NCBI GenBank assembly: GCA_021784515.1
Contig: JAJXSP010000003.1
Span: forward strand, 1-32,450
DNA: 32,450 nt
Reading direction: 5' to 3'
Origin: Myxococcales bacterium
Lineage (GTDB): Bacteria; Myxococcota_A; Polyangia; Palsa-1104; SHYY01
Below, one piece after another: positions 8,112-25,512 of this stretch. The notes below the pieces were generated by a model. That model ran no database searches and was not told the origin of the DNA. It saw only the letters and a program-made list of their open reading frames with translations. The translations under genes were made by a program, and so were the position numbers. Every line of letters starts with the position of its first letter. The first letter of the stretch is position 1.

Positions 8112-9146
8112 ATGCGCGCCATGCCCCGACCAGGCCGACGCAAGGGCGCCTTCCGCCAGGCCACCCGACTCCTCCGGATCAGCGAGTCGCTGCGCGCGCG
8201 GCGCTTCGGGCTGCCGCTCGCCGAGCTCGCCGCCGCCTTCCAGGTGAGCGAGCGGCAGATGAGGCGCGACGTGGCCGCCCTCGACGAGGCGGGTGTGCCC
8301 GTCGAGACGACGCTCGACCCCGAGGGGCGCAGCCGCGTGGCGCTGCGCGGCGGCCCGCAGCGCGCGATCTCGCTCAGCCTCCGCCAGCGCTACGCGCTGC
8401 TCGCCGTGCGCCGCGTGTTCGACGTGCTGCGCGACACGCCGCTGTACGAGGACGTGGTGGCGATCGCCGAGAAGATGGCGGCGTCGCTGCCCGAGGAGGA
8501 GCGGCTCGACGCCGAGGGGCTCGCCGATCGCTTCCTCTTCCTGCCCGACGGCGGGACGAAGCGCTACGCCGACAAGCAGGACGTCCTCGACGCGCTCCTC
8601 ACCGGCGTGCTCCGGCGCCTGCGCGTGCGCGCGAGCTACCGGCGGGCGGGCGGCGCGACCCACGAGATGCTCCTCGAGCCCTACGCGATGGTGCTCTACA
8701 AGAACGGGCTCTACGCGATCGGGCGCGGCCTGCCCGTCGAGAACCCCGACGAGGCAGCCGACCGCAAGCCGTTCGTGTTCGCCGTCGAGCGCTTCGTCGA
8801 GGCGGAGCACGTGCGCGGCACCCACTTCACGCCGCCCGCCGGCTTTTGCGCCGAGTCGTTCTTCCAGGGCGCCTTCGGACTCTTCACGGGCGCGCGCACG
8901 GAGCGCGTCGAGATCGACTTCTCACCCGAGGCGCGACCGTTCGTCGAGGCGCGCAGCTGGCACCCGACGCAGCGGCTCGCCCCGCGACGCGACGGCGGCG
9001 TGCGCCTCTCGTTCGAGGTGGCCGACGTGACGCCGGTGGTGTCGTGGGTGCTCGAGTGGGGGCCTCACGCGCGCGCCCGCGGGCCGCGCCGCCTCGTCGA
9101 CGAGGTGCGCCGCCAGCTCGCGGCGACCGCGGCGCAGTACGAGTAG
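8112..9146 (+). CDS. WYL-domain transcriptional regulator (HTH-WYL-WCX, PafB/PafC-like)
   Basis: HTH LAELAAAFQVSERQMRRDVAALDEAGVP, WYL core LEPYAMVLYKNGLYAIG...FAVERF, WCX region WHPTQR...SWVLEWGPHA. Start is 8112 or 8121. Confidence 0.92.
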   Translation: MRAMPRPGRRKGAFRQATRLLRISESLRARRFGLPLAELAAAFQVSERQMRRDVAALDEAGVPVETTLDPEGRSRVALRGGPQRAISLSLRQRYALLAVRRVFDVLRDTPLYEDVVAIAEKMAASLPEEERLDAEGLADRFLFLPDGGTKRYADKQDVLDALLTGVLRRLRVRASYRRAGGATHEMLLEPYAMVLYKNGLYAIGRGLPVENPDEAADRKPFVFAVERFVEAEHVRGTHFTPPAGFCAESFFQGAFGLFTGARTERVEIDFSPEARPFVEARSWHPTQRLAPRRDGGVRLSFEVADVTPVVSWVLEWGPHARARGPRRLVDEVRRQLAATAAQYE

Positions 9147-9252: not shown

Positions 9253-11958
9253 CTACTGGGGCTCGCGCGGGTAGATCGCCTTGTACGGATTGGCGACGTT
9301 GTGCACGTTCGCGACGCTGAACTGGGCGTCGGTGCCGTGGCACACCTCGCAGCTCTCGATCGGGCCGTTCGGCCCCTGCCAGGTATTGATCTGGACATGG
9401 GCCCAGTGCGCCTCCTCGTCGTGGCAGGCGAGGCAGACGCGACCCACGGCCGCCGGGCCGCCGAACGGATCGTTCCACGCGGTGTTCACGCAGGTCTTGT
9501 TCGGGCCGCAGCTCTGGCCATAGCCGCACGGCGGGTTGTTGCCACCGCAGGCCGCGCCGCTGTCGGCGTGGCACTTGGTGCAGTTGCGCACGTCGGTCGG
9601 GAAGTTGTTGGTCGACCAGTCGTCGCCGTTGATCTCGAGCTTGCCCGAGAGCGGGATGTTGCCGAGCTGCTGGTACCCGCCGAGCTGCCGCGCGTAGTGG
9701 ATCTGGTGGATCATGACGCGGAAGTCGACCAGCTGGTTCGGCGTCGGGTCCGCGACGTAGACGCACACCTTGTTCTGGCAGGCCGCGTACTTCTGGGGAC
9801 CGGCCGCGCCACCATCGCAGTCCGCGTCGACGGTGCACGCGCCGGCGCCCTCGATGGCCGCCCCGATCACGCCCTGGTCCTCCGCCATGAAGCCGTGGCA
9901 GACGGGGCACTGCGCGACCGCCTGGCCATCGGCGAACTGACGGGTGTACCCGTGGTGCTCCATGGTGCGGTGGCAGCCGTTGCACGCGCTCGGCATGATC
10001 ACCTGCCGCGGCTGCACGGGCGCGTCGCTCCCGTCGGAGCTGAAGCGGACCGTGGCGATGAAGTTCGAGGCGTCGCGCCAGCTCACGTTGGCCACGTTCG
10101 GCGGAGGGAGCCGCAGCGTCTCGAACGCCCAAAGGTGGACGGTGTAGCTGCCCGACGGGTTGGGCTGCCGGGTGAACTTGCCCGCCGGGCTATCCAGCGG
10201 CACCTGGCCGTTGACCGGCCAGCCCGGGTTCGCCTCGCCCGGCGCGACCGGGAAGGTGAAGGTGTAGGTCTTGGAGTTGGCGTCGTAGGTGAGGCAGGGG
10301 ACCGTGGTGTTGTTCGGACCGGGGCAGGTGGCGCTCATGACGTTGATCGCGCCGCCGCCGCTCTGGAACACCGGGAACGGCTGCTCCGTCGGGCCCGCGA
10401 TCGCCGCGCTGATTCCCCAATTGCCGTGATTCGGGTCATTCGCGTCGAGCACGTTCACCGCGCCCGCCTTGTTCGACAGCTGGAACTTCACCACCGGGAC
10501 GTCGCCCGCCTTGAAGCTGTTGTTGGCGCCGGTGCCGCCCGAGAGCACGACGTTGGACAGCGTCACGCCATCCTTCTGCGAGTAGAAGGGCAGGTCGTGC
10601 TTGACCGGCAGCGGCGAGACGCCGTTGTTGTCCGCGCTGTGGCAGGCCGAGCACTTCGTGTCGTCCGTCTCGACGGGGTGGGTCTTTCGCACGCAGGTGC
10701 CGGTCGGCACGTCGCAGGTGGCGTACGTGCTGAATCCCAGGCAGTCGTTGTTCGACGCGCAGGAAGCCGCGGTGCCGTTCTTGTACATCGCGCCCGTGTA
10801 GGGCTTCCCGTAGTTGCGCGGCGGGTTCATCACGCCGGTGTCGAAGAACACCGCCTCGTGGCAGGTGCCGCAGGCGAGGCGCGACGGGTTCTTGAGGTAC
10901 GCGTCGGTGACGTGGCAGCGCGTGCAGTCCTTCTCGTTGTTCGGCAGCCCAGGGAACTTCACGTCGGTGAAGGAGGCCAGCGACGTGTCGGTGCCGAGGC
11001 CGTACTCGGGGTGCGCCACGCCCGGATTGACCTGGTGAATGCCGCGGTGGACGGCGTGCACCTTGCGGATGATCGGGTTCGGGCTGTAGCCGTCGACGTT
11101 GTGGCAGAACTTGCAGTTGAGGACGGGCGTCTCGTCGATCGCGTAGTTGCCGTACGGGTTGCTCGCGCTCCCCTCGCTGTGCATCTCGTTCGACTTGCCC
11201 GACATCGTGCCGAGGTGACACGCAAAGCAGGACGAGGTCTGGGCGTCGCCGGTCGTGTAGGCCTCCGGCGTCGCCGTCCCGATCTGGACGTCGGCGGAGA
11301 GGAAGACCTGATCGGAGCCGTCCTTGCTCTTCACCCAGACGCCGACCTCGTAGGTGCCGGCAGCCTCGTCGCTGACCGGCGCGGTGACGAACTGGAGGCC
11401 CGTCGCCGTCGTCGTGAGGTTGGTCTGCTTGGCGTCGAGGAACTTCGGCGCGATGAGGTTCACGTAGTGGTGCTGATGGTCCATCGCCGCGCGATCGACG
11501 ATGCAGTTGAGCAGCTTCGACGCGCTCTTGGTCTGCGTGGGAGCGCGCGGACCCGCCATGTAGAGGTTGAGGGTGCCGTAGGCCGAGGCCGGAACGATCC
11601 GCCCGCAGTGGTCGACCATGTCGATATTGATCGTGATCTGGTCGCCCGCCGCGAAGAACATGTTCTTCGCCGGCGGCTGGACGGTCAGCTTCACGCCGAG
11701 GCCGGGATCGACGTTCGCGTTGAGCCCGTCACAGCCGGCAGGGCCGGGAGCGCCCGCGTCGCCCTGCGGGCCGGCCGGGCCCGTCTGGCCCGCCGGACCC
11801 TGCTGGCCGGTGGTGCCGTCGTTGCCGTTCTTGCCCTGCGGTCCCGCTTGCCCGGCAGGGCCGGGGGCGCCCGCCTCACCGGTGGTGCCGGCCGGTCCGT
11901 CACAGGCGGACAGCGGCAGCACTGCGACCAAAAACAACGCCAAATTGACTTTCCTCAT
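9253..11958 (-). CDS. OmcA/MtrC-family decaheme c-type cytochrome lipoprotein with collagen-like N-terminus (paralog 1)
   Basis: Lipobox LSAC; 18 Gly-X-Y triplets; 10 CxxCH (CFACH, CKFCH, CTRCH, CGTCH, CSACH, CNGCH, CPVCH, CTKCH, CLACH, CEVCH) as beta domain/5 hemes/beta domain/5 hemes; MtrC-like motifs [29 protein letters not shown]. Confidence 0.88.
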
Positions 11959-12482
11959 GGACAGACCCCTTTCCTAATGAACTCTCCGACCAGAATGCAC
12001 GGATTGTTGCCGTTCTCTGACAAGGTTCCTCGCCGCACTGGTTCTGCTGACGGACGGTCTTCTATCACCGCCGATAACTCGGAGTCCAGAATTTCCGGTA
12101 ACTGAACCGTCATCGGGTCGAACTCCTGTCGTTCCCGGCGCTCGTGCGTGCGCAGCGCGGCGCCCAGTTCGAGGAGATTGCCCACGGCCCCGCGGCGATT
12201 CCCCTGCACCAGCTCCCGCTCCACGTCGGCGAGCAGCGACCGGAGCGCCCAGTGCTCCCGTCGCAGCGAGGCGATCAGCCGCGAGCAGTCCGCCCTCCCC
12301 ATCGCCTCGAGCGCAGCAAATACCACATCCTCCTCCGCACGCAGCTGAGCGCGCAATCGTTTCGCGAATTCATTGAAGGAGGGGCTCCAACGGTCCACGC
12401 GCCGCAACTCGCGGACTGCCGCCTCAATCAACATGACCATTGTCAAGAAACCCTTTGCAAGGCACCTCGCCGTGCTGGACAT
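11955..12482 (-). CDS. Degenerate hemerythrin-like (HHE) domain protein
   Basis: C-terminal part of ORF 11955..13226. GGAAGGAG precedes ATG 12482; pattern [13 protein letters not shown]...LRREH..L...THERRE; stop overlaps the downstream ATG (ATGA). Codon usage is atypical and the first His ligands are missing. Confidence 0.5.
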
Positions 12483-12517
12483 GCCGCCTCGCTCCTTCCA
12501 ACCGGACCGCCGCCCCA

Positions 12518-13573
12518 TCAAGGGTGGCAGACCAGACACATCCCGTTCCGCCCGATCTCCGTGCGCGGGTGGCGATCGGTGTATCCCGCGGGGTGGGGGT
12601 TGCCGCCGATGCCGCCGACCTTGTGGCAGGTGACGCAGACCGAGTTGGGCCCCTGGTCGTGGCACGCCGCGCACTCGGAGATGTCGCGCCGGGCGACCGG
12701 ACCGTGGAACTCGGGCGACGCCGGGAACGCCCAGCCCTGCGGGTGCGGCGTTCGCGGACTGCCGGCCTGCGGCGTCAGGTTCTGCGCGCGGTGGCAGTTC
12801 TCGCAGAAGCTGGTGCCGTGGCAGCGCGCGCAGCGGGTCGGGTCGGCCCGCACCTCGATCGCGTGCCGGTCGACGAAGTCGCCGCGGTGGATGAAGTCGG
12901 AGTCGACCTTCTCGCTGTACTTGAGCTCGATCCGCATCGAGACGGTCTTGGCGTGGCAGTCGGCGCAGAACGTCTGCTCGTGGCAGTTCGCGCAGGTCGC
13001 CGACGAGGAGCGCGCGTCGCGCGGGTGCTGCTCGACCCAGTTCCCGGAGTGCGAGAACTCGGCAACCGGCTTCAGCGGGAAGCGCGCCATGCTCACGTGG
13101 CAGCGCGTGCAATTGCCGGCGCGAAAATCCTCCTCGTGATTGTGGCAGCCCCTGCATGCAGCCATCTTCGGAGCATAATCGCGGTGCCGGCTCGGGTCGG
13201 GAAGCACCTTGTGGCAGACGGTGCAATCCTGCTTCACGCGCTCGATGTGCGGCTTGTGCGCGAATCGGATGTCACGCTCCCGAACCGGATACGCGCGCGC
13301 CCGTTTCACGTCGGTATGGCACTTGACGCAATTGCCGTTGTCCTTCTCGTCCTGGTGGCACTCCATGCACTTCGACTCGGGGGGACGGAAGTTGCCCTCG
13401 ATCGTCGTGGCGTCGTAGATCTCCTCGTGGCACATCCCGCAATCGACGCCATTGCCGAGGTGCTTGTCGTGCGGCACCCGGATCAGATCACCCGAGAAAT
13501 TGTCCGTCACGGTCAGGGCGGCGCACGACGTGACGAGCGCGGCCGCGCCGATGAGAACGGTCCGGCGAATCAC
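12518..13573 (-). CDS. 13-heme c-type cytochrome lipoprotein (c3/c7-like N-half, paired-CxxCH C-half)
   Basis: GTG start overlapping the porin stop (GTGA); lipobox LVTSC; 13 CxxCH counted (CGMCH, CMECH, CVKCH, CTVCH, CRGCH, CTRCH, CANCH, CADCH, CARCH, CENCH, CAACH, CVTCH, CLVCH). Confidence 0.92.
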   Translation of the reverse strand: MIRRTVLIGAAALVTSCAALTVTDNFSGDLIRVPHDKHLGNGVDCGMCHEEIYDATTIEGNFRPPESKCMECHQDEKDNGNCVKCHTDVKRARAYPVRERDIRFAHKPHIERVKQDCTVCHKVLPDPSRHRDYAPKMAACRGCHNHEEDFRAGNCTRCHVSMARFPLKPVAEFSHSGNWVEQHPRDARSSSATCANCHEQTFCADCHAKTVSMRIELKYSEKVDSDFIHRGDFVDRHAIEVRADPTRCARCHGTSFCENCHRAQNLTPQAGSPRTPHPQGWAFPASPEFHGPVARRDISECAACHDQGPNSVCVTCHKVGGIGGNPHPAGYTDRHPRTEIGRNGMCLVCHP

Positions 13574-14898
13574 TGCTTCACCTCGCTGCCCGGCTTTCCG
13601 TCCGGCGTCGCGGCCGATTTCACTTCGTGAAAGCGGGTGCTGTAGTTGTAGACGAGCTTCGCCATCGCCTCGAGTCGCCCATTGACGAAGGGATCGACGT
13701 CGCCCATGGCGGTCAGCACGGCGTGCCAGCCCGGAGAGAAATCCCAGCCGACGGTGGCGGTGGCGGTGAGCGACCAGTCCTGACCATTGAGGGCCCGCTC
13801 GAGCAACAACCCGTCGACGTCGAGGGTCACGCTGATCTTGTCGCCCAGCCGCTGGATCCCATAGACACGCCCCTCGAGATAGCCCTTGTCCGGCAGGTGC
13901 ACCACGCGCGTCTCGGCGCCCACCGTCCCCTGATTGCCGGTGCCGATGCTCGCCTTCACGCCCCCCTGGTGGCCGGTGCCCGAGTCGTCGAGCACCAGGT
14001 GGTAATCGCCGTACAGCCGCACTCGCGGCCGCGGCGTCACGGAGAACCACACGCCCGCTTCGTCGCGCGTCTCCTGCGCGAACACCGAGAGGATCGAGTT
14101 CCGCGGAAGGAACAGATCCGGCGCCACGCGGCGGAACTCGGCGGTGATGTCGAAGATTCGCCAGGGCTGCGCGGTGATCGCCGCCGTCCCCTCGGCGGTC
14201 CGCATTTCATAGAGGCTATAAAGCCAGTAGCCGGTGAAGGTGAGCTGTCGAATCGGCGACCAGCGCGCGTCCAGCGCCGCGTCCTCGCGGGCGGCCACGC
14301 CCTGGCCAAGCACGTAGATGGCCGAGGCGCCGGCTTCGGTCGTGACCGACTGCCGATAGAACAGGCGCCCGCCGGCGAGCGCGTCGCCGCGGCTGGTGGA
14401 AAAGCGCGGCGTGACCGGCACGCCGCCATAAGCCTGCAGCCCGAGCCCGCGATACAGCTTCACCTCGGCGTCCAACCCGTCCATCTGGGTCATTCGCGCC
14501 GCGCCGCCGGTGATGAACTGGCGCCCGATTCGTACCGTGATGCGCCGGTGCGCGAGCTTGCCCTCGATGTAGCCGAGGTCGAGATCCCCGCTGACGCAGG
14601 CGTTGTCGCCGAGCGAGGCGTTGGCGAACTTGCAGTTGTCCTGGTTGTCCCCGGGCGTCCCGAATGCCGCCATTCCCCAGCCCGAGAGCTGGATCCGCAA
14701 ATCGTCCACGTAGGGCACCTGGAGGTCCGAGGCGAGCAGCGACACCATCTCGTACGCCGGGACGACCGTATAGGTCCGCCCGTCGCGCTCGTCGGCGTGG
14801 CCGGCGAGCAACGTGGTCGAGGTGGCGTCGATCGTGTCGGCGCCCGCCGGTGCGGCGGCGGCGACGAGCAAAAGCGCGAGGCCGCTACGGCGCGACAT
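13570..14898 (-). CDS. Predicted outer-membrane beta-barrel (porin of a porin-cytochrome module)
   Basis: Sec signal MSRRSGLALLLVAAAAPAGA-D; amphipathic strand pattern with aromatic girdle residues throughout (VRIGRQF, MDGLDAEV, LTFTGYWLYSL, WSLTATATVGWDF, LEAMAKLVYNY); no heme motifs; overlaps both flanking multiheme genes. Confidence 0.75.
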   Translation of the reverse strand: MSRRSGLALLLVAAAAPAGADTIDATSTTLLAGHADERDGRTYTVVPAYEMVSLLASDLQVPYVDDLRIQLSGWGMAAFGTPGDNQDNCKFANASLGDNACVSGDLDLGYIEGKLAHRRITVRIGRQFITGGAARMTQMDGLDAEVKLYRGLGLQAYGGVPVTPRFSTSRGDALAGGRLFYRQSVTTEAGASAIYVLGQGVAAREDAALDARWSPIRQLTFTGYWLYSLYEMRTAEGTAAITAQPWRIFDITAEFRRVAPDLFLPRNSILSVFAQETRDEAGVWFSVTPRPRVRLYGDYHLVLDDSGTGHQGGVKASIGTGNQGTVGAETRVVHLPDKGYLEGRVYGIQRLGDKISVTLDVDGLLLERALNGQDWSLTATATVGWDFSPGWHAVLTAMGDVDPFVNGRLEAMAKLVYNYSTRFHEVKSAATPDGKPGSEVKQ

Positions 14899-16651
14899 CG
14901 ATTGTCCCATTGATGTGCGTGCTGCTCTCCATCCCCGCGGCGCCGGTAATCAGGATGTCGCCGTGCGAGTCGATGGTCTGGGGATGGCAATCCGCGCAAT
15001 GCTGCAAGCCGGATTGGAATGCGATCGCCTTCCACTTCGCGCCGGGCGCGTGGGCGGCATTCTGCGGCGGAATCCCGTGGCAGGCGCCGCACTCGGCCTG
15101 CGGGCCCCCGCCGGTCCACAGCGGGGAGTGATTCAGCGTCGACGTCTGATCGGTGCCGATCTTCGCGCCGCCGCCGTGGCAATAGACGCGCGAGCAGGTC
15201 CCCGCGTCGTGGTCGAAGGCGGGCTGCGCGCCGTCCTTGAATGCGAGGCTCGTCGACGCGATCGCCGCCGGGAAGAGCTGCGCCGGCAGGTCGTGATCGA
15301 TGTGGCCGGGGTCGGTGACCCTGGTCGGCACGGCGTGGCAGTCGCCGCACGCCACCGGGCCGCGCAGCCGGTGCGCGCCGAGGTGGGCGTCGTGCGCGCC
15401 GACGGAGATCAGGCCGGGATCGGTGCGACCCTGGAGATCGCGCGGCGGCGAAGGGTGATTGGGGCTGCCGTGGCAGGCCCAGCAGGTGCCCGACTCGTCG
15501 CCGAGCGAAATCTTCCCATCCACGTGCCGGGAGAGATCGACCAGCGTCGGCACCGTCGCCCCGGGCGTGGGCGGCGCGGCGACCTTCGGATGGCACGTCC
15601 AGCAGGTGGTCAATTTGTGGTTCGACGGCGGCAGCCCGTGACACGATCCGCAGGTCGCCTCGCCCGAGCCGCCATTCCATCGGGGCGAGTCGTTCTTCGC
15701 GTTTTCGTCCCCGAAGGCGCCGCCGTGGCAATAGACGAACGAGCATTTCCGCGCCGTTTGATCCCAGCCCGGCGGCCCCTGTCGCGGCACGCTCGAGAAG
15801 CTCTGCCCGGCGAACGCGCCGAAGGGCACGATATCGACACCGGCGGGCGGCCCGGCGACGCCGCCGTCGGCGTCATAGGCGGGAATCACGCCGCCGTCCG
15901 CGTCGAAGACATGGCCCACGTCCGTCCAGGCCATCGGCTTCACGTGGCACTCGCCGCAATCGAACGGGCGCGCGAACGCCCCGCCCTTCACGTGCGTCTG
16001 GTGCGCTCCGGTCGCCGGCGGCTGGCCGTGGCAGGTCTCGCAGTCGGTCGGACCCTTGTCGTGGCACTGGAAGCACGACCCCTTCGCCGCGCCGCCTTTG
16101 AAATCGTCGCCATGGCACTTCTGGCAGAGACCGAGGTCGTAGCTCAGCGTCGGAACCGCCCGCGCGTGAAAGTCGACGGAGTCGGGATTGGCCCAGCCGG
16201 CCGGATGGACCGGAGTGGGCGCGATGGCGAGCTGGCAGTCGACCACCCATTTCTGGACGGCGGCGAACAGGGCCGGATCCGTCGCCGCCTGGTGCGTCGG
16301 ATCAGCCGTCTGCGGGTCGATCGTCTGGAGCAGCAGCGACGAGGGATCGCCCGCTACCGCGACCACCTTGCCGCTCGCCTCCTTCAATGTCGTGAGGTAG
16401 CGACTCACGTCGTAGCCGGCGGCCGGGCTCGCGCCGCCGTGGCAGCCGCTGCAGCGACGGAGCAGCTCCGGCCCGACGGCGGCGATCGGCACGCCCGCGT
16501 CGGCGCCGGCGGCCACCACGTCCTCGCCGAGCGCCTTCCAGGTCACGCGGCACACGCGCGTCCCGAACTCGTCGGGCCGCTCGCTCGCGCAGCCTCCCTG
16601 CAGGCTCGCCAGGAGCGCGGTCATGGCAAGGCACCTCGTGGGCGAGGTCAT
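14885..16651 (-). CDS. Multiheme cytochrome lipoprotein with CxxxxCH/CxxCH domains (13 motifs)
   Basis: Start moved to MTSPTRCLAMTALLASLQGGC (GGAG upstream). 11 CxxCH plus 2 CX4CH (CSFVYCH, CSRVYCH), each followed by W...CG.CHG.PP, the Geobacter-type CxxxxCH...CxxCH repeat. Confidence 0.88.
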   Translation of the reverse strand: MTSPTRCLAMTALLASLQGGCASERPDEFGTRVCRVTWKALGEDVVAAGADAGVPIAAVGPELLRRCSGCHGGASPAAGYDVSRYLTTLKEASGKVVAVAGDPSSLLLQTIDPQTADPTHQAATDPALFAAVQKWVVDCQLAIAPTPVHPAGWANPDSVDFHARAVPTLSYDLGLCQKCHGDDFKGGAAKGSCFQCHDKGPTDCETCHGQPPATGAHQTHVKGGAFARPFDCGECHVKPMAWTDVGHVFDADGGVIPAYDADGGVAGPPAGVDIVPFGAFAGQSFSSVPRQGPPGWDQTARKCSFVYCHGGAFGDENAKNDSPRWNGGSGEATCGSCHGLPPSNHKLTTCWTCHPKVAAPPTPGATVPTLVDLSRHVDGKISLGDESGTCWACHGSPNHPSPPRDLQGRTDPGLISVGAHDAHLGAHRLRGPVACGDCHAVPTRVTDPGHIDHDLPAQLFPAAIASTSLAFKDGAQPAFDHDAGTCSRVYCHGGGAKIGTDQTSTLNHSPLWTGGGPQAECGACHGIPPQNAAHAPGAKWKAIAFQSGLQHCADCHPQTIDSHGDILITGAAGMESSTHINGTIDVAP

Positions 16652-16668
16652 CGACGTCGCTCCACCGC

Positions 16669-19317
16669 TCACCGGGAATACGGAGGCACGTAGGGGTTCG
16701 AAATGGCGTGCACGCGGGCGACGGCGAACTCGGACGCCGGGCCGTGGCACACTTCGCAGGTCTCGATCGGCCCTGCGTTGCCTTGATAGGTATTCAGGGC
16801 GATGTGCGCGAATGCGGGGGCGGTGTCGTGGCAGGCCCCGCACACCTTGCCCGACGGATTCTGCCAGGCGACGTTGGTGCAGGTGCCGCCGTTGCACGCC
16901 TGGCCGATCCCGCACGGGGTATTGGCGTCACAAGCTGCCCCGCTGTCGGCGTGGCACTTCGTGCAATTGCGCACGTCCTGCGGGAACAGGACCCAGGAGT
17001 AGTCCGACGAATTGATCTCGAGGCGGCCTGCGTAGGGGATGTTGTTCGCCTCCTTGTAGCCGCCGAGCTTCCGCGCGAAGTGGAGCTGGTGCATCATCGC
17101 GCGAAACTCCACCAGCTGCCCCGGAGTGGGGTCCTTCGTCGTCACGCAGGTGTCGGCCGTCCCGTCGTTGTCGGTGTCCTGGCAGGCCTGCCATCCGGCG
17201 TTGAATCCCGTGCAGTCTTTCGCCTGCGTCGGGGTGGTGCACTTCGCCCCGAGCGAGCCGACCACGCCCTGGTCCTCCGCGCCGATGGTGTGGCAGGTGG
17301 GACAGCCGAGGAACGTCATGTCCGGCGTCGCCTGGCGACTGCCGCCGTGGGCCTGGAGGCGCACGTGGCAGCCATTGCACGCCGACGGCATCACCAGTTG
17401 CCGCGGCTGCTGCGGCGCATCGCTCCCGTCGGGGCTGAACCGCACCGTCGACAGCCAGCTCGAGAAGTCGCGCCAGCTCGCGTTGGCAACATTCGGCGGC
17501 GCCGGGCGCAAAACCTCGAAGACCCACAGCCACAGCGTATAGGTGCCGGCGACGTTGGTCTGCCGCGGCACGGTGAGCGAATTCAAGGGCGGCTGCGAGA
17601 GCACCGGCCAGCCCGGCTTCTGCTCGTTCGGCGCGATCGGGAAGGTAAATGTGTAGAGCCCCTTGTTGGCGTCGAAGGTGAGGCAGGGAACCGTGGTGTC
17701 GTTCGGCCCCGGGCAGGTGGCCGACTTCACGTTGATCGGCGAGCTCCAGATCGGCTCCGGGTTGTCCGTCGGGCCGGCGAGGGTGACGTTGGCCGACCAG
17801 TTGGCGTAGTTCGGATCATTGGGATTGGTCAGCGCGTTGACCACTCCCGCCTTGTTTTCCAGCTTGAAGGTGATGACCGGCACGTCGCCCGGCTTGAAGC
17901 TGCCGTTCGTCCCGCTGCCGCCGCCCAGCACCACCGACGAGACCTTCACTCCGTCGCTCTGCGTGCGTTGGGCGATGTCGTGCTTCACCGGCAGCGGCGA
18001 CAGGCCCTTGATGTCGACGGTGTGGCAGACCGGGCACGCCACATCGTTCTTCAGCTGGGGGTGTGTCTTGCGCTGGCAGGTGCCGCTCGGCACGTCGCAG
18101 GTGACGAAGTTGCCGAACCCCGCGCAGTCGGCGTCGCCGGTGCAGCTCACCGCGGTGCCCGCGGCGTACATCTTCCCCACATAGGGCTTTCCGAAATTGC
18201 GCGGCGGATTGAGCGTGCCGGTGTCGAAGAAGACGTTGTCGTGGCAGGTGCCGCACGCGAGCCGCGTGGGCGCCGTGAAGTAGGTGTCGGTGACGTGGCA
18301 CTTCGTGCAGTCGCGCTCGTGGCCGGGCAGCGACGGGAAGGTGACGTTGGTGAAGTCCGCGAGCGAAGGGTCGGCGGCGAGGCCGTACTCGGGGTGGGCC
18401 ACGCCGGGCGCCATCAGGTTCGCGCCGCGGTGGACGGCGTGGACCTTGCGCACGATCGGATTCGGGCTGTAGCCGTCGAGGTTGTGGCAGAGCTTGCAAT
18501 TGACGACCGGCGTTTGATCGATCGCGTAGTTGCCCATCGGCGACGAGGCCGAGGGCATGATGTGCATCTCGTAGGACTTGCCCGAGATCGTTCCGAGGTG
18601 GCAGCTCCAGCAGGCGCTGGTCTTCTCGTCGCCGGTGGCGAAGCTCTCGACCGTCGCGGTGCCGATCTGGACGTACGCGGTCTCGAGCGCCTGCTGCACG
18701 CCGTCCTGGCTCTTGGCCAGGACTCCGATGGTGTACGTGCCGGGCGGCTCGTCGCTGACGGCGCCGGTGGTGAAGACGAACCCATCATTGGCGGGCGCCA
18801 GGTTCTCCTGCGCGGGGTCGGCGAAGCTCGGCTTGACGAGGTTGACGTAGTGGTGCTGGTGATCGGCCGCCATCCGATCGGTGACGCAGTTGAGGAGCTT
18901 CGAGGCCGTCTTCGTCACCGTCGGGGCGCGCGGCCCCGCCATGTACAGATTGAGGGTGCCGAGCGTGGACGGGTCGATCGGCCGCTGGCAATGATCGACG
19001 AGCGTGATCGCGATCTGGAGTCGCTCGCCGACGTCGAAGTACATCCCATTCTTCGGCGCGGCGATGGTCAATGTAGGATGGAGCGGTTCGCCGCCCGGCG
19101 GGACGTCACAGCTACCGACGGGCCCGGGCGGTCCGGGTGCTCCCGCGTTGCCGGTGGGCCCAGGGGCGCCCTGCATTCCATTGGCCCCGCTTTTCCCATC
19201 GCCGCCGTTCATTCCGTTCGGCCCGGGATCGCCCGGATCGCCCTTTGGTCCCTGTGGACCTTCGCATGCGCCGAGGAGGAGCGTAGCGGTCGCAAGCCAG
19301 ATCAGTCGATTCTTCAT
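16669..19317 (-). CDS. OmcA/MtrC-family decaheme c-type cytochrome lipoprotein with collagen-like N-terminus (paralog 2)
   Basis: Lipobox LGAC; 16 Gly-X-Y triplets; 10 CxxCH (CWSCH, CKLCH, CTKCH, CGTCH, CPVCH, CNGCH, CPTCH, CTKCH, CGACH, CEVCH); colinear with 9253-11958. Confidence 0.88.
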   Translation of the reverse strand: MKNRLIWLATATLLLGACEGPQGPKGDPGDPGPNGMNGGDGKSGANGMQGAPGPTGNAGAPGPPGPVGSCDVPPGGEPLHPTLTIAAPKNGMYFDVGERLQIAITLVDHCQRPIDPSTLGTLNLYMAGPRAPTVTKTASKLLNCVTDRMAADHQHHYVNLVKPSFADPAQENLAPANDGFVFTTGAVSDEPPGTYTIGVLAKSQDGVQQALETAYVQIGTATVESFATGDEKTSACWSCHLGTISGKSYEMHIMPSASSPMGNYAIDQTPVVNCKLCHNLDGYSPNPIVRKVHAVHRGANLMAPGVAHPEYGLAADPSLADFTNVTFPSLPGHERDCTKCHVTDTYFTAPTRLACGTCHDNVFFDTGTLNPPRNFGKPYVGKMYAAGTAVSCTGDADCAGFGNFVTCDVPSGTCQRKTHPQLKNDVACPVCHTVDIKGLSPLPVKHDIAQRTQSDGVKVSSVVLGGGSGTNGSFKPGDVPVITFKLENKAGVVNALTNPNDPNYANWSANVTLAGPTDNPEPIWSSPINVKSATCPGPNDTTVPCLTFDANKGLYTFTFPIAPNEQKPGWPVLSQPPLNSLTVPRQTNVAGTYTLWLWVFEVLRPAPPNVANASWRDFSSWLSTVRFSPDGSDAPQQPRQLVMPSACNGCHVRLQAHGGSRQATPDMTFLGCPTCHTIGAEDQGVVGSLGAKCTTPTQAKDCTGFNAGWQACQDTDNDGTADTCVTTKDPTPGQLVEFRAMMHQLHFARKLGGYKEANNIPYAGRLEINSSDYSWVLFPQDVRNCTKCHADSGAACDANTPCGIGQACNGGTCTNVAWQNPSGKVCGACHDTAPAFAHIALNTYQGNAGPIETCEVCHGPASEFAVARVHAISNPYVPPYSR

Positions 19318-19434: not shown

Positions 19435-19758
19435 CTACTTCAGGCCCCCTTTGATAAATGCGGCGAGCCCCTTGGCGTCGTCGGCGCTCAATCCCTTCTC
19501 CTTGAAGGCCGGCATCTTCTGCTTGCCGTCGTCGCCCTTCTTGCCATCCAGGATCATGCTGGCGATGCCCGCCTCGTCGAGCTTGGTCACCGTGAGGTCC
19601 TTGATGCCGAGCTTCTTGCCCATGGCGGTCGCGCCCTTGCCGTCCTTGCCGTGGCAGCTCGCGCACTTCTTGTTGAAGGTGTCGTTGTCCGCGCGCGCCG
19701 GCAGCGCGAGGCCGGCGACCGCCAATCCGAGGAACAGGGACTTCGAGGTGAGGGTCAT
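19435..19758 (-). CDS. Small periplasmic monoheme class I cytochrome c
   Basis: Signal peptide ending PARA; CASCHGKDGKG; distal Met in KMPAF; AGGAG RBS; Lys-rich. Confidence 0.93.
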   Translation of the reverse strand: MTLTSKSLFLGLAVAGLALPARADNDTFNKKCASCHGKDGKGATAMGKKLGIKDLTVTKLDEAGIASMILDGKKGDDGKQKMPAFKEKGLSADDAKGLAAFIKGGLK

Positions 19759-20987
19759 TTCGTTTCTCCTTTGTTGTCTTTTGTGCCGCCGGCGCTTTCG
19801 GGCGGCGCCACGTTGAGCGCCGCGAGGACGTGCCGCATCTCCTCGCCGGTGAGCGACGGCCAGCGGACCTCGAGGTCACGCATCCGCTCGAGCATCGTCG
19901 GGCCGTGCATCCACAGCGCCTGCGCCACCGTCACGGGCGTCGCCCGGTTCCGGTACTTGTCGAGGTCGGGTCCGGCGCCTTTTCCATGGCACTGCACGCA
20001 TCCCTTGTCCCGCAACAGGGCCGCGCCCTTCTCCGGAGAGCCGGGCTCGTCGGCGTAGGTCGCCGCGAACAGGTAGGTAATGACGTGCGCCATCTCCTGC
20101 GGCGTCAGCACCGGAACCTGGATGTTCCGGCTCGCCATCGCGGCCCGCATCTTCTCCACGCTGTTCCACGCCTTGATGGCGATTCCGGTGAACGAGGTCT
20201 CCCAGCCCTTCCGTCCCAGTTCGGGGCCGACCTTGCCCCCGACTCCATGCACCGTGTGGCATTGGATGCAGCTCTTCTCCCGGAAGAGCTTCTCCCCGAG
20301 CGCGGCGTCGCCCGGATCGAGCAGCTCCGCCTCGCCGGTGGGCGACATCGAGCGGATGTAGCTCACGATGTCCACCAGCTCGCTCGCGCTGAGCGACGGC
20401 TGCGGGATGTTGCGCGCGCGCATCGCCTGCACCATCTGCGACGCGTGGTCGAACATCAGCTTGGCCCACACCGCGGGATTGCGGAAATGGGCCCAGCGGC
20501 GCAGATCCGGGCCTACGCCATTGCTCTTGTCGCCGACGGTGTGGCAGGTCGCACAGCGCTTCTCCTCGAGCAGGCGCCGGCCATTGTCCGGGTCGCCCGG
20601 CTCGTCGATCGCGCGCACGAACGAGAGGTAGGCGAACAGGTCGGCCATCTCGGCTTCATTGATGGGGACCTGGGGAATGCGCTCCTCCTTCATCTTCCCC
20701 CACATCCGCGGGATGTGGTTCCACAGCGCGGCGGCCAATTCGGCGTCGGTGAGCGCGCCGGCGTGGGTGCGCCCGAGGTCGGGGCCGACCTCGCCGCCGT
20801 GCCCGAAGACGGCGTGGCAGCGCGCGCACGACTTGGCCACGAAGACGTTCCACCCGCGCCGCACGTCGCCCTTGGCGGGCGCCTTCGCCGCCGGCGGGGC
20901 GTCGGCCGCGCCGGCCGGACTGGCCAGCAGCGTTACGCCGAGAAAGAGGTTCGCAGCGACGAGCGAGATGGACTTTCGACGGATCAC
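19755..20987 (-). CDS. Periplasmic tetraheme cytochrome built from four tandem class-I-like domains
   Basis: Signal peptide; four repeats G..LF/L..K.CxxCH...GP(D/E)L...(WNH/FDH/WNS/WMH)...M with CARCH, CATCH, CIQCH, CVQCH; GTGA overlap with nrfD. Confidence 0.88.
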   Translation of the reverse strand: MIRRKSISLVAANLFLGVTLLASPAGAADAPPAAKAPAKGDVRRGWNVFVAKSCARCHAVFGHGGEVGPDLGRTHAGALTDAELAAALWNHIPRMWGKMKEERIPQVPINEAEMADLFAYLSFVRAIDEPGDPDNGRRLLEEKRCATCHTVGDKSNGVGPDLRRWAHFRNPAVWAKLMFDHASQMVQAMRARNIPQPSLSASELVDIVSYIRSMSPTGEAELLDPGDAALGEKLFREKSCIQCHTVHGVGGKVGPELGRKGWETSFTGIAIKAWNSVEKMRAAMASRNIQVPVLTPQEMAHVITYLFAATYADEPGSPEKGAALLRDKGCVQCHGKGAGPDLDKYRNRATPVTVAQALWMHGPTMLERMRDLEVRWPSLTGEEMRHVLAALNVAPPESAGGTKDNKGETK

Positions 20988-22420
20988 GACGCCGCCTCCT
21001 GGCGCTCGGGCTCATCGGACGGAAGGTAGGAGTGCACCCGCTCGCTGACCTCCTTCACCGCCAGCTCGCGCCCTTCCTGGATCTCCCAGATCGACACGAT
21101 CGGGAACAGCTTCGTGAAGCACATGTAGGCGAGGATGAACAGCGCGCTCTCGCCGGCGAAGATCCCCCACTCCACCCAGGTCGGGAAATAATGGGCGTGG
21201 GTCCCGGCGAGGCGCGGATTCGACAGCGACGGGACGACGATCGTCCAGCGCTCGAGCCACATACCGATGACGACCGGGATCGACGCCATGACGGTGCCGG
21301 TGACGGTGCGCCACTTGCGATTGGAGAGGATGGTCAGTGGGATGACGAAGCAGCAGACCACCATCGTCCAGAACGCCGGCGCGAAGGGTCCCCGGATCTT
21401 GTCCCACAATACCGCCATGTGGGCCGGCTCGCCGCCGTAGAAGGTGACCAGGTACTCGCAGACCATGAAGTAGAACCACAGCAGCGCCATGATCAGCAGC
21501 AGCAGGCCGAGGTAGCTGAAGTGGATTTGCTTCAGGTAGTTCTCGAGGTGATAGACCTTCCGGATCAGCGCCATCGCGAGGATGAGCGCGGCGATTCCCG
21601 AGAAGATGGCGCCGCAGACGAAGAACGGTCCGAAGATGGCGGTGTGCCACATCGGCTGGATGGTCATCGCGAACACGAACGACACGACGGTGTGGACCGA
21701 GACCGCGATCGGAATGACGATGACCGCCATGATCGAGATGAGCACCTCGAGGATGCGGTGCTGGCGCGGCGAGCCCTTCCAGCCGAGCGCCAGCGTCCGA
21801 TAGAGGGCGTGGCGGACGCCGGTGGTGCGGTCGCGGAGGATCGCGATATCGGGAATCAATGGCAGGAACAGGTAGGTGGTCGAACCGAACAGGTAGCAGG
21901 TGACGCTGCAGACGTCCCACAGGAGCGGCGACTGGAAGCGACCGAATTTGATGACGGGGATGATGTTGAGGAGCCGGTCCGGGCGCCCCATGTCGATGAG
22001 GATGCTGCCGACGCCGAAGATGATCACCATGACGGTGATGACCTCGGCCGATCGCGTGATGGCGCGCCGCCATTCTGCCTTGGCGATTCGGAGGATCGCC
22101 GAGATGAGGGTGCCGGCGTGCGAGATGCCGATGAAGAAGACGAAGTTGGTGATGTAGACGCCCCAGTAGACTGGCCGGTTCAGGCCGGTCACGCCGAGGC
22201 CGTACTTGAACTGGAAGAGGTAGGCGTAGACGCCGAATGCGCCGATCATGAGGAGGACGGCGGCCATCGCCCAGAAGCGCCAGGTCGTTTCGAGGACGGG
22301 CTTGAGGAGGGCCGCGTCCTGCGTGAGGCTGTGCGCCCCGCCCTCGTGCTTCGGGGTTTCGGCCGCCGCCTGCGCTGCGTCCTCGCGGGTCAACAGACCG
22401 TCGGCAGTCATGGTGGTCAT
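20984..22420 (-). CDS. nrfD: NrfD/PsrC family membrane subunit (QrcD/ActC-like quinone-binding subunit)
   Basis: Start moved to MTTMTADG (ATGA overlap). GLGVTGLNRPVYWGVYITNFVFFIGISHAGTLISAILR, DMGRPDR, SPLLWD, SVHTVVS, GMWLER, PTWVEW; about 10 TM segments. Confidence 0.92.
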   Translation of the reverse strand: MTTMTADGLLTREDAAQAAAETPKHEGGAHSLTQDAALLKPVLETTWRFWAMAAVLLMIGAFGVYAYLFQFKYGLGVTGLNRPVYWGVYITNFVFFIGISHAGTLISAILRIAKAEWRRAITRSAEVITVMVIIFGVGSILIDMGRPDRLLNIIPVIKFGRFQSPLLWDVCSVTCYLFGSTTYLFLPLIPDIAILRDRTTGVRHALYRTLALGWKGSPRQHRILEVLISIMAVIVIPIAVSVHTVVSFVFAMTIQPMWHTAIFGPFFVCGAIFSGIAALILAMALIRKVYHLENYLKQIHFSYLGLLLLIMALLWFYFMVCEYLVTFYGGEPAHMAVLWDKIRGPFAPAFWTMVVCCFVIPLTILSNRKWRTVTGTVMASIPVVIGMWLERWTIVVPSLSNPRLAGTHAHYFPTWVEWGIFAGESALFILAYMCFTKLFPIVSIWEIQEGRELAVKEVSERVHSYLPSDEPERQEAAS

Positions 22421-23127
22421 TCTCCCTCCCGGAGGTAGAAGACTTTCGGCTCGGTCCCGAGGTCTTCGAGGAGCCGGAACGAGCGCGGCGAACGGGCGAG
22501 CTGCGCCACTTCGCTCCGCGGGTCGTCGAGATCGCCGAAGAACATCGCCTTGGTGGGGCAGGCTTCGACGCACGCGGGGAGGTATTCGCCCGGGCGCAGC
22601 TCGCGCTTCTCGGCCGCCGCCTTGTCACGCGCCTTCTGGAGCCGGTGGTGGCAGAAGCTGCACTTCTCGACGACGCCCCGCGGCCGCACCGAGACATCGG
22701 GGTTCAACGACTGCGAGAGCTGCTCCGGCCAACGCGGCGGATACCAGTTGAAGTAGCGCGCCGTGTAGGGGCAGGCGGTCGTGCAGTAGCGGCAGCCGAT
22801 GCAGCGGGCGTAGACCTGCGCGATGATGCCCTCCGCGCCGATCGCGGTCGCGCCCACCGGGCAGACCTTGATGCAGGGCGGTTTGTCGCAGTGCATGCAC
22901 GGGCGCGGAATCAGGCGCAGCTTCACGCGCGGATATTCGCCTTCGACGTTCGGCAGGAGCTCCATCCAGCGGATTGAGCGGTCCTGCGCGGCCGACTGCG
23001 GCGTCGGCGGCGGGATGTTGTTTTCCGTCTGGCAGGCGGTGGTGCAGCCTTGACAAGCGTCACAGCGATCGAGGTCGATCACCATTCCCCAGCGGGGTCG
23101 TGCTTTGGCGTGCTCGGTCTCGTTCAT
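22417..23127 (-). CDS. 4Fe-4S dicluster protein (NrfC/DmsB/QrcC-like, four clusters)
   Basis: RWGMVIDLDRCDACQGCTTAC, CMHCDKPPCIKVCP, CIGCRYCTTACPY, VEKCSFC...PACVEACP. Confidence 0.95.
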   Translation of the reverse strand: MNETEHAKARPRWGMVIDLDRCDACQGCTTACQTENNIPPPTPQSAAQDRSIRWMELLPNVEGEYPRVKLRLIPRPCMHCDKPPCIKVCPVGATAIGAEGIIAQVYARCIGCRYCTTACPYTARYFNWYPPRWPEQLSQSLNPDVSVRPRGVVEKCSFCHHRLQKARDKAAAEKRELRPGEYLPACVEACPTKAMFFGDLDDPRSEVAQLARSPRSFRLLEDLGTEPKVFYLREGE

Positions 23128-23136: not shown

Positions 23137-25512
23137 TCAAGCCTTGCGGACACGGACCCAGCCGGCGCCCCAACCGGAGACGCCCGTCGGGTCCTTTCGA
23201 AGCGCGACGAGGGAGCCGGCGGAGGCGCCCATCGCCCGGCGGCAGATCTGGCCGGGCGCGCCGCCCGGGCCGAGAGGCATGGCGGCCACGCCCGGCCGGA
23301 TTCCCGGATAGACCTTCACGCGCGCCTCGACCTCGCCGTCGGGTGACTGCACGATCACGCCGGTGCCGTCGGTGAGGCCGAGCGCGTCGGCGTCGGTGGG
23401 CGACAATTCGACCCACAGGCGCCACGACTGTTCCATTTCCTTTCCCAGGATGTCCTGCACGAACGGCAGCGGTCCGGCGTGGTCACCGTAGGCCGCCAGG
23501 AGCGGATAGAGGTGGAGGCGGAACGGGTATTCCTGGTGGAGCCGTTTTTCGGGGTCGGCCGACGCGGTCGGAGTGCCGTCGCCGACGCGCACCACCGACG
23601 GGCGGGCGGCCGTCGCCGGATCGTAGGCATTGGCCAGCTGCTGGAATTCGAACTTTCCGCTCGGGGTGCGCAGGACGCGCCCGCGCTCGCCGAAATCGTA
23701 GGACGGATCCCACCAGCCGCCGCGCTCCTCGAGCTTCGACCAGAATCGATCGAAGCTGCCGAAGTCGGAGGCGCGCCAGCCGCTCTGTTCCATCGTCTCG
23801 ACCCACGGCTCCGCCTCGGAGACGTCGAAGATCGCGCCGCGGCCGGTCTGATGGATCCCGGCGATGGCGAGCTTCATCACCTCCGGGAAGTCCTTCCACG
23901 GCAGCGCGCCGCCCGTCGCGCCACCGACGCCGCGGGCGATCTCGGCGAGCGTCTCGCCGGCGTGCCGCGTGTCCTGTTTCGGGGGCAGAAGGGGCCGCCG
24001 CAATCCGAGGACGGGATATCCCCCCGAGGTGTAGGTCGCGTCGTCCTGCCAGCGCTCGAGCCAGGTGTGATCGGGCAGCACGAGATCGGCGCGGCGCGCC
24101 GTCTCGTCGAGGAACGGAGAGAGGCTGACAATGAAAGGAATGCGGCCCAGCGCCGCCTTCGCCTTGTCGCCGCCACCGAGCGCGGCGAGCGGGTCCGCGC
24201 CGAGCACGATGAGGAGATTGATGGGATATTGCCCGCGCCCCTCGATCCACGATTGAAGGTCGGCCAGGCCGGAGGCGCCCCCATTCCCCGCCAGCGACGG
24301 CATCGCCGCGCCGCGCTTGCCCGCCTCGTCGGCCGGCGTCGCCGGCAGCGGCGCGAAGGGCACCGGCGGCGGGGTGAGCGTGCCGCCCGGCGCATTGATC
24401 GCGCCCACGACGGCATTCAAGGCGTGGATCGCCATCCGCGCCTCGACCGCCTGCGCGCCCGGGCCGACGCGGTCGTCGCCGATGGCCACCGCGGGCCGCG
24501 TCGAGGCGAAGCGGCGCGCCACCCGGATCAGCGTGGCCACCTCGATCCCCGTGCGCTCGGCGACCGCCTCGGGGTGGTAATCACGGAGGACGATCCCTCG
24601 CAGGGCGTCGAACCCCGTGCCCCAGCGATCGACGAAATCGCGATTCTCCAGCCCTTCGCGGAGGATGAGGTGCATGAACCCGAGCGCGAGCACACCCTCG
24701 GTGCCGGGCTCGATCGGGATCCACTCGTCGGCGTGGGCGGCGCCGACGGAGAGTCGGGGCTCGATTTGCACGACGTGCACGCGCTTCGACTTGCGCGCCC
24801 GCCGTGCGAGGGCGTAGCCGCGGCCGGCGCCGACGGGCGAGGCCGCCCCGTCCAGCCAGCCGGATCCGAATGCGAGGATGAAGCGGGCATTTTCGAGGTC
24901 GTAGGAGACCGGCCCGGAAATCCCTTGCAGCGCGCGCACCGCCTCGGGAGCGCGGTCATCGGTCCAGGCGCGGCCGTCGACGTGATGGGGCGAGCCATAG
25001 GACTCGAGGAAGCGCGCCGCGAGCTGGCTCTCGAGGCCGCGCGACCCGTCCACGATGGCGACGGTGTGCGAGAGGCCGCGGTCGCGCAAATCGCGCAGAC
25101 GCTTCGACACGTCGCCGATGCCGTCGGCCCAGGTGGTCGACTTGAAGTCGCCCGAGCCCGCGGCGCCGGCGCGCCGCATCGGGCCGCGCAGGCGATCGGG
25201 GTGATAGAGCGTGTGCGCCGCCGCGAGGCCGAGCGGGCACAACCCTCCCCGATTGATGGGGTGCAGTGGATTGCCGGAGATGCCGACCAGCCTCTCCTCG
25301 ACGATCCGGGCGCGCACCCCGCAGCCGCCCGGACAGGCGCCGCAGGTGGAGACCAGCCAGGTTTCCTTGAGGCCCGAGCGCGGGGGGCTGGCCAGCGGCG
25401 CGTCGGGGTCGACCGGCTGGTCCGGCGTGCGACAGCCGATGAGGGAGCCGACGGCCGCGGTGGCGGCGGCCGATTCCATCACCTGCAGGAATTCGCGGCG
25501 ATTGAGCGTCAT
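23137..25512 (-). CDS. Molybdopterin-oxidoreductase-family subunit (QrcB/ActB-like), Tat-exported probable lipoprotein
   Basis: Twin-arginine NRREFL and LIGC lipobox; CGACPGGC...C N-terminal Fe-S motif; YHPDRLRGPM, ADEWIPIEPGTE, DETARRADLVLP..TWLE; C-terminal dinucleotide-binding-type domain. Confidence 0.92.
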   Translation of the reverse strand: MTLNRREFLQVMESAAATAAVGSLIGCRTPDQPVDPDAPLASPPRSGLKETWLVSTCGACPGGCGVRARIVEERLVGISGNPLHPINRGGLCPLGLAAAHTLYHPDRLRGPMRRAGAAGSGDFKSTTWADGIGDVSKRLRDLRDRGLSHTVAIVDGSRGLESQLAARFLESYGSPHHVDGRAWTDDRAPEAVRALQGISGPVSYDLENARFILAFGSGWLDGAASPVGAGRGYALARRARKSKRVHVVQIEPRLSVGAAHADEWIPIEPGTEGVLALGFMHLILREGLENRDFVDRWGTGFDALRGIVLRDYHPEAVAERTGIEVATLIRVARRFASTRPAVAIGDDRVGPGAQAVEARMAIHALNAVVGAINAPGGTLTPPPVPFAPLPATPADEAGKRGAAMPSLAGNGGASGLADLQSWIEGRGQYPINLLIVLGADPLAALGGGDKAKAALGRIPFIVSLSPFLDETARRADLVLPDHTWLERWQDDATYTSGGYPVLGLRRPLLPPKQDTRHAGETLAEIARGVGGATGGALPWKDFPEVMKLAIAGIHQTGRGAIFDVSEAEPWVETMEQSGWRASDFGSFDRFWSKLEERGGWWDPSYDFGERGRVLRTPSGKFEFQQLANAYDPATAARPSVVRVGDGTPTASADPEKRLHQEYPFRLHLYPLLAAYGDHAGPLPFVQDILGKEMEQSWRLWVELSPTDADALGLTDGTGVIVQSPDGEVEARVKVYPGIRPGVAAMPLGPGGAPGQICRRAMGASAGSLVALRKDPTGVSGWGAGWVRVRKA

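Follow-up and report, generated by a model that had tools for sequence, protein, structure and literature searches.

A conserved barrel and multiheme lipoprotein pair in Myxococcota, predicted to form a porin–cytochrome conduit of the Pcc type

Among the few known trans-outer-membrane electron conduits are the porin–cytochrome (Pcc) clusters (Shi et al. 2014; Liu et al. 2014). Here, we compare these and related systems with three adjoining genes, A, B, and C, at positions 12518–16651 of a 32,450-nucleotide stretch of DNA from a Myxococcales bacterium (assembly GCA_021784515.1, contig JAJXSP010000003.1, positions 1 to 32,450), the whole of which we will call the window. Soils, peat, sediments, and mine wastes all harbor abundant Myxococcota, and for most of these we know of no described route of electron exchange with minerals.

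Pcc clusters consist of a porin-like protein of 18–22 predicted strands and a neighboring cytochrome with 5–14 hemes, usually with an outer-membrane cytochrome (Shi et al. 2014, PMC4245776). In the two-gene "group IV" clusters of Anaeromyxobacter, only the barrel and a 12-heme cytochrome of 338–344 aa are present (PMC4245776). In ExtABCD of Geobacter sulfurreducens, a periplasmic cytochrome with 12 hemes is combined with a barrel of 18 strands and a pair of lipoprotein cytochromes (Jimenez Otero et al. 2018, PMC6148476); 21 strands each are predicted for ExtE and ExtI, and the surface components are the ones that are replaced or vary in Geobacter (PMC6148476). Myxococcota top a list of unclassified clusters of multiheme cytochromes putatively involved in extracellular electron transfer, with FeGenie matches to "MtrC, ExtABC" (bioRxiv 10.1101/2022.03.26.485925).

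B, a predicted outer-membrane barrel, and C, a 13-heme lipoprotein, make up a real, strongly conserved, and uncharacterized porin–cytochrome conduit family. Together with A, a second, different 13-heme lipoprotein, they probably form a trans-outer-membrane electron conduit like those of Geobacter Pcc/Ext and Shewanella MtrCAB. The three genes adjoin head to tail on the minus strand (Table 1), as genes 7–9 of eleven consecutive genes on that strand, which overlap or are separated by short gaps; two of the others encode decaheme lipoproteins (D and E). The start of B overlaps the 3' end of A by 14 nt, and the stop codon of B overlaps the GTG start of C in the form of GTGA; an earlier note on this DNA had given the three genes, their coordinates, and their overlapping stop and start codons correctly. 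One should keep in mind that the database gene call starts A nine codons later (579 aa). On the sequence comparisons presented below, chance occurrence of the trio is excluded, because the motifs are invariant in the homologs of A and C and because the gene order recurs in other genomes.

The window has a G+C content of about 70%, and its source is a metagenome-assembled genome (MAG) of 5.5 Mb that is 95.5% complete. In an independent Logan assembly of sequencing run X1, possibly the source sample, positions 11066–16966 lie on one contig with zero differences; this run, the only one listed as containing the DNA in full, is labelled as a mine tailings metagenome. No RNA run is listed as containing the stretch, and RNA run X3 shared with the stretch only two 18-nt pieces of one contig, which have no bearing on expression either way.

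B possesses zero heme motifs and an ordinary signal peptide with an AGA/DT signal peptidase site. At E ≤ 0.01, it matched no family in Pfam or NCBIfam; MtrB_PioB of Pfam did not match either, so that B is not counted as a member of MtrB/PioB. When used as a profile, B gave no match among PDB sequences at E ≤ 10. The AlphaFold2 model, for which an alignment of 43 homologs was supplied, has 22 antiparallel strands (predicted local distance difference test, pLDDT, 87.7; predicted template modeling score, pTM, 0.76), and bears out the β-barrel that had been suspected from the pattern of strands. The first strand begins immediately behind the signal peptide, at residue 22, and B therefore has no plug domain. 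Most strand connections are 2–4 residues long, the two long ones being 162–172 and 259–277.

Structural comparison places this barrel among large ones. When B was compared with structure representatives using VIA-align, the top match was the 24-strand usher FimD (Z 19.7); 22-strand TonB-dependent transporters followed at Z 17–18.6, with a root-mean-square deviation (rmsd) of about 4.5 Å over 339–350 residues, and MtrB (6r2q_B) was found at Z 16.4 (rmsd 5.3 Å over 335 residues), that is, the search against MtrB that the earlier note had suggested gives a match at the level of the fold. Because B superposes on the 22-strand transporter barrels, its modeled lumen is in the size range that, in TonB-dependent transporters, usually accommodates a plug of about 150 residues. 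A TonB-dependent transporter was itself considered as an identity for B and rejected: the barrel size fits, but strand 1 begins at residue 22 and neither the Plug nor the TonB_dep_Rec family of Pfam matched. The best Foldseek matches were generic substrate porins and usher pores, with template modeling (TM) scores of only about 0.3–0.46. The nearest ESM Atlas clusters are all named "hypothetical protein" and come from Myxococcota, one of them mainly from Nitrospirota; the protein names in 10 clusters of distant barrel relatives were likewise uninformative.

C carries 13 CXXCH motifs, including CANCHEQTFCADCH, at 27 aa per heme, and its signal peptide ends in the lipobox LVTSC, in agreement with the 351-aa, 13-heme lipoprotein of about 27 aa per heme that had been described. 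Pfam family PF14522 matches at 66.7 bits and PF22113 at 29.1 bits, the latter below its cut-off of 30. Among PDB sequences, C matched only c7 triheme cytochromes or domains (best E about 1e-4), and no sequence similarity to MtrA or MtrB was detectable for either C or B. In 37 homologs of C, the lipobox Cys17, all 13 CXXCH motifs, and 11 further His residues are invariant, and two more His residues are at least 90% conserved; as read from this alignment, the 13 conserved extra His residues would suffice for bis-His ligation of all 13 hemes. C also contains a variable linker of about 18 residues.

The fit between the two proteins was assessed by complex prediction with residues 20–442 of B and 17–351 of C, each with its own alignment and with hemes absent. 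The interaction prediction score from aligned errors (ipSAE) reached 0.82, 0.79, and 0.82, while the best of three controls scored 0.00; the runs had at least 83% of contacts in common, and the pLDDT of the partner was at least 75. Of the solved complexes, 116 of 157 attain the mark applied to ipSAE, as do 2 of 215 mismatched pairs; these counts are only a rough guide here because author-made alignments were used. On the side of B, the interface involves 21 of the 22 strands, mostly through alternate residues, together with loops 162–172 and 259–277. On the side of C, it involves only residues 171–349, which carry hemes 7–13, while residues 17–170, with the lipid anchor and hemes 1–6, lie outside. 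C residues 200–210 and 239 make contacts near the rim with the long loops, and residues 220–223 lower down. Conserved residues of B are over-represented in the interface (35 of 69, expectation 21.4; hypergeometric p = 1.4e-4). The C-terminal half of C, with hemes 7–13, is thus predicted to sit inside B. The proposal that C is the wire through the barrel survives in this restricted form: the predicted insertion supports it (0.82 versus 0.00), but for the C-terminal half and not for the whole of C.

The two genes also travel together. Whereas a genome scan using the B sequence alone found no relative, the same scan repeated with an alignment (A1) found 33 loci, and all the named ones are MAGs of the Myxococcota type. 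There are at least 166 close relatives of B among 8000 scored candidates, and representative clusters number 963 at E ≤ 1e-3 and 273 at E ≤ 1e-30. Of the close loci, 30 include DNA downstream of the barrel, and 29 of these have a 13-heme gene there (28 complete and 1 cut at the locus end); 30 include upstream DNA, and 27 of these have a 12–13-heme CX4CH gene 5' of the barrel. In the distant Myxococcota loci, a C homolog with 12–14 hemes is found immediately 3' of the barrel in 20 of 20 cases, which brings the coupling of barrel and C homolog to 49 of 50 informative loci, close and distant. The earlier note had held that barrel homologs occurring mostly without cytochromes would speak against a conduit; 29 of 30 close loci have the 13-heme partner and all 20 distant ones a partner with 12–14 hemes. 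The other cytochromes of the distant loci are CX4CH proteins with 8–36 hemes, upstream or downstream, or proteins with 23–27 hemes. B and C are therefore the conserved core and A is a lineage-variable partner, since a C homolog follows the barrel in nearly all loci while the other cytochromes differ.

A profile search of 401 sampled Myxococcota genomes from 255 genera found the barrel family in 84 genomes and 46 genera. Since roughly one in five of these genomes (84/401) has the core pair, it can serve as a concrete marker for annotation pipelines, and with 442 and 351 aa it offers a compact target for structural and genetic work.

The source MAG contains a second, paralogous module with the order decaheme-A-B-C, which is split over the ends of two contigs, C417 (1–5641) and C528 (8981–10434). 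Identity to the window copy is 62% for C, 52% for B, 47% for A, and 47.5% for D; conservation therefore falls toward the presumed surface parts. A small ORF (open reading frame) with four heme motifs, one of them CX4CH, is found 3' of the C homolog in L002, L003, L009, L010, L015, L020, and L029, and beside the modules of L068–L071, L085, and L086; it is absent from the window copy.

In A, 11 CXXCH and two CX4CH motifs (CSFVYCH and CSRVYCH) add up to 13, and the signal peptide ends in a lipobox, LQGGC. All 13 motifs, both CX4CH included, are invariant in 40 homologs, in which the lipobox Cys21 is at least 90% conserved, and the protein is thus the CX4CH-containing 13-motif lipoprotein that the sequence had first suggested. 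Two CxxxxCH/CxxCH domains are recognized (TIGR01904, 82.3 bits over two stretches, cut-off 27; PF09698, 45.8 bits). The N-terminal domain is class-I-like and monoheme, with PSCyt1 at E 4.8e-4, below its cut-off; Foldseek returned only weak, non-significant class-I cytochrome rows for it, and A had no match among PDB sequences better than E 0.5.

By architecture, the trio is a Pcc-type conduit, because its strand and heme numbers fall inside the published Pcc ranges: B, with 22 strands, and C, with 13 hemes, are both within them (PMC4245776), and strict co-occurrence of barrel and cytochrome is common to both. Lipoprotein multiheme cytochromes occur in most of the clusters described there, and here A, D, and E all possess a signal peptide and a lipobox Cys. 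The partner cytochrome is called "periplasmic" in that paper, whereas C has the invariant predicted lipobox Cys17 instead. To speak of a distinct class, as the earlier note did, was an overstatement, given that published Pcc clusters already span 18–22 strands and 5–14 hemes and include the two-gene form in Anaeromyxobacter (PMC4245776). Its remark that Geobacter Pcc uses shorter barrels is true of ExtB, with 18 strands against 22 in B, but less so of ExtE and ExtI, with 21 predicted strands (PMC6148476).

The Anaeromyxobacter pair deserves particular attention since it comes from the same phylum, its 12-heme cytochrome of 338–344 aa is close to C, and 12-heme homologs of C exist in L074–L076. 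It is rather likely that B and C are homologous to this pair (Adeh_3392 and the adjoining barrel), with which they were compared by description only. The Anaeromyxobacter clusters are described, in the available text, without outer-membrane cytochromes, whereas most loci here add the CX4CH lipoprotein and MtrC-like decahemes. A literature search for Adeh_3392 found only Shi et al. 2014 (PMC4245776).

The layout of ExtABCD and ExtEFG is similar to that of our locus, in that the barrel has a 12-heme cytochrome as its neighbor on one side and lipoprotein cytochromes on the opposite side. Two lipoprotein cytochromes go with each barrel, as ExtC and ExtD do; as in the Geobacter Ext systems, the surface parts vary and the core is conserved; and the domain of A is the "Geobacter CxxxxCH...CXXCH" domain (TIGR01904). 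The systems differ, by description, in that soluble periplasmic proteins are predicted for ExtA and ExtG, whereas here the cytochromes on both flanks are lipoproteins. Shewanella MtrCAB (6R2Q) has a multiheme cytochrome sheathed by a barrel, as is predicted for B and C, and MtrC/OmcA-like decaheme lipoproteins occur in the same operon here too. Those of the window carry collagen-like stalks, unlike MtrCAB. MtrB has 26 strands, compared with 22 in B. MtrA has 10 hemes, whereas C has 13, is a lipoprotein, and would be inserted by its C-terminal half only, so that it does not qualify as MtrA-type. The predicted departures from published descriptions are, therefore, a half-sheathed lipoprotein wire, a 13-heme CX4CH lipoprotein as partner, and decahemes on collagen-like stalks. 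Our literature search found no description of this module, though the bioRxiv supplements may list such clusters; PMC12133095 was searched for Myxococcota and contained none.

In the conduit that we consider probable, B would be the sheath, its lumen filled by the seven-heme C-terminal half of C, which would carry electrons through the membrane. The six-heme N-terminal half, lipid-tethered via the variable linker of about 18 residues, would project from one mouth of the barrel and extend the chain, and A and the decahemes would exchange electrons with the other end of C. D and E would be exchangeable partners, most likely at the cell surface. On the inner side, a Qrc-like molybdopterin/FeS/NrfD module and class-I cytochromes, judged from the operon context, would link the conduit to the quinone pool. 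Extracellular Fe or Mn minerals, or other insoluble partners, would be the electron-exchange partners outside, with flow possible in either direction.

On the orientation of C, we lean modestly toward its N-terminal half facing the periplasm, with A outside, the latter placement being an inference. Two observations favor this: conservation is highest in C and lowest in A and the decahemes, which also vary most between lineages, and two-gene B+C loci exist (L004 and L027). The reverse has C as a surface lipoprotein that plugs the barrel from outside, with the six N-terminal hemes extracellular and A facing the periplasm like ExtA. In its favor, the order A-B-C mirrors extA (periplasmic, 12-heme), extB (barrel), and extC/D (lipoprotein cytochromes) (PMC6148476), lipoproteins are assigned to the surface in the Geobacter models, and a FeGenie-based survey gives "ExtABC" matches in Myxococcota (bioRxiv 10.1101/2022.03.26.485925); the list of B+C interface contacts is silent on the side from which C enters. 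A also starts with the class-I-like monoheme domain usual in periplasmic carriers, a weak point given the sub-threshold PSCyt1 hit (E 4.8e-4) and the non-significant fold matches. Yet A has a conserved lipobox Cys and is therefore not a soluble periplasmic protein like ExtA; moreover, it is C that is most conserved and A that ranges from 8 to 36 hemes between lineages, surface parts being those that vary in Geobacter (PMC6148476), and in L004 and L027 B and C occur as a two-gene pair. The reversed arrangement strikes us as unlikely.

It is highly improbable that B is an ordinary diffusion or export porin, merely co-transcribed with cytochromes that form a periplasmic or membrane-associated redox chain bypassing it. 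B does lack a family annotation, its best Foldseek matches are substrate porins and usher pores at the low TM-scores given above, and its union with C is a prediction; but an empty, plug-less barrel of 22 strands, most of them joined by 2–4 residues, would be an unusually large open hole, the C homolog is coupled to B in 49 of 50 informative loci, the complex score is 0.82 against 0.00 for controls with contacts that face the lumen, and conserved residues are enriched at the interface. A different question, of function rather than anatomy, is whether electrons run inward through such a conduit, from extracellular Fe(II) or reduced minerals via class-I cytochromes either into an oxidase or uphill into the Qrc-like module, as in lithotrophic iron oxidation. 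Iron oxidizers use class-I cytochrome carriers between the outer membrane and the oxidase, and the soluble carriers encoded upstream here are class-I cytochromes (c4/c551/cbb3-type); run X1, the only one listed with the full DNA and possibly the source, bears the mine tailings label. MtrAB homologs work in both directions (on Rhodopseudomonas, see PMC6148476). Decahemes of the MtrC/OmcA type and CX4CH cytochromes are, however, known from metal reducers, going by family names, the window shows no gene for an oxidase or for carbon fixation, and nothing in the sequence fixes the heme potentials. Inward flow is possible, though we hold it to be doubtful.

Several points weigh against the conduit proposed here and should temper its use. 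The complex score is the prediction model's own confidence, and since a solved barrel-sheathed cytochrome exists (MtrAB, 6R2Q), similarity of architecture may account for some of it. Seven hemes and about 145 residues would be tight in a 22-strand lumen, by a rough volume estimate that does not come from coordinates. The 25 best contact pairs, taken with strand parity, do not show from which mouth residues 17–170 of C emerge, nor does the prediction output place A. The AlphaFold2 model of A is poor to moderate (pLDDT 69.1, pTM 0.46), and Foldseek found no structural match for it at E ≤ 0.001. Among the loci, L032 holds a 74-residue barrel fragment without cytochromes, and L004 and L027 have no upstream CX4CH gene. 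Finally, the link to the quinone pool is drawn from context only, because the Qrc-like subunits score below their NCBIfam cut-offs.

A wider proposal is that B and C form a separate, Myxococcota-wide conduit lineage, independent of Mtr and of Geobacter Pcc, with a lipid-anchored, half-inserted 13-heme wire, and with trimerized decahemes that would act as tethered, swinging carriers on collagen stalks of about 14–16 nm (a length estimated from 16–19 GXY triplets) and not as fixed caps like MtrC. We regard this as rather unlikely. If confirmed, the lipoprotein wire and the collagen-stalked decahemes would be two new design solutions among the few known trans-outer-membrane electron conduits.

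The operon reads, from 5' to 3', QrcB-like, QrcC-like, NrfD/DsrP-type, four-domain cytochrome, monoheme cytochrome, D, A, B, C, hemerythrin ORF, and E (Table 1). In comparison with Qrc, class-I cytochromes occupy the place where QrcA would be. The likely start of the NrfD/DsrP-type gene is ATG 22420, which overlaps the preceding stop codon. The start of the hemerythrin ORF is uncertain (12482 or 12440), and its stop overlaps the start of E; from its domain, the product may be a sensor or carrier of O2, NO, or iron within the operon.

Table 1. Coordinates of the genes in the operon around A, B, and C, as positions in the window
Feature	Positions	Strand	Start and stop, or domain matches
A: 588-aa predicted lipoprotein, 13 heme motifs	14885..16651	-	ATG 16651, stop 14885
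B: 442-aa outer-membrane barrel (predicted), 22 strands, without plug domain	13570..14898	-	ATG 14898, stop 13570
C: 351-aa lipoprotein, 13 CXXCH hemes	12518..13573	-	GTG 13573, stop 12518
D: 882-aa MtrC/OmcA-like decaheme lipoprotein, collagen-like GXY stalk	16669..19317	-	PF22113, Collagen
E: 901-aa second MtrC/OmcA-like decaheme lipoprotein, collagen-like stalk	9253..11958	-	PF22113, Collagen
Molybdopterin-oxidoreductase-like subunit, best match QrcB	23137..25512	-	QrcB 261.8 bits (cut-off 440); PF00384, PF01568, PF04879
4Fe-4S ferredoxin-type subunit, best match QrcC	22417..23127	-	QrcC 306 bits (cut-off 400); Fer4 families
NrfD/DsrP-type integral membrane quinone-interacting subunit	20984..22420	-	PF03916 108.8 bits; DsrP 131 bits (cut-off 350)
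410-aa periplasmic protein, four class-I cytochrome c domains, 4 CXXCH	19755..20987	-	PF00034 112 bits, PF13442 98 bits (4 stretches)
107-aa monoheme class-I cytochrome c with signal peptide	19435..19758	-	PF13442, PF00034
Small hemerythrin-HHE domain ORF between C and E	11955..12482	-	PF01814 35.6 bits on long ORF

D and E, which are 56% identical, each possess a lipobox and 10 CXXCH motifs. Both exceed the cut-offs of PF22113 (73 and 80.2 bits, respectively; cut-off 30) and of Collagen (33.5 and 35.7 bits; cut-off 27.2), and both fall below that of TIGR03507 (147.5 and 131.7 bits; cut-off 209.3). The GXY runs cover residues 20–70 in D and 21–80 in E. In both proteins, 16–19 collagen-type GXY triplets follow right after the lipobox Cys and end in a Cys; such triplets suggest, by their sequence, that the decahemes are trimeric and stand on a stalk. 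Beside related modules, 15 of 29 large ORFs with 8–11 hemes have at least eight GXY triplets before the first heme, and loci with collagen-stalked decahemes include L004, L005, L020, L030, L073, L075, L078, L085, and L086, among others. The literature search found no paper that joins collagen-like sequences with a multiheme cytochrome.

The N-terminus of the QrcB-like subunit shows a twin-arginine motif, RREFLQ, followed by a lipobox-like LIGC, from which the protein may be a lipoprotein exported by the twin-arginine translocation (Tat) pathway. ARAGORN called a tRNA-Thr(CGT) at 24592–24665 (minus strand), but this lies inside the unbroken molybdopterin-oxidoreductase ORF and its Pfam domain and is probably false. 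Just beyond the operon, there are two ORFs on the plus strand, one for a regulator of the WYL/WCX/HTH (helix-turn-helix) type at 7917–9146 and the other for an outer-membrane transporter of the FadL/TodX type at 5410–6672.

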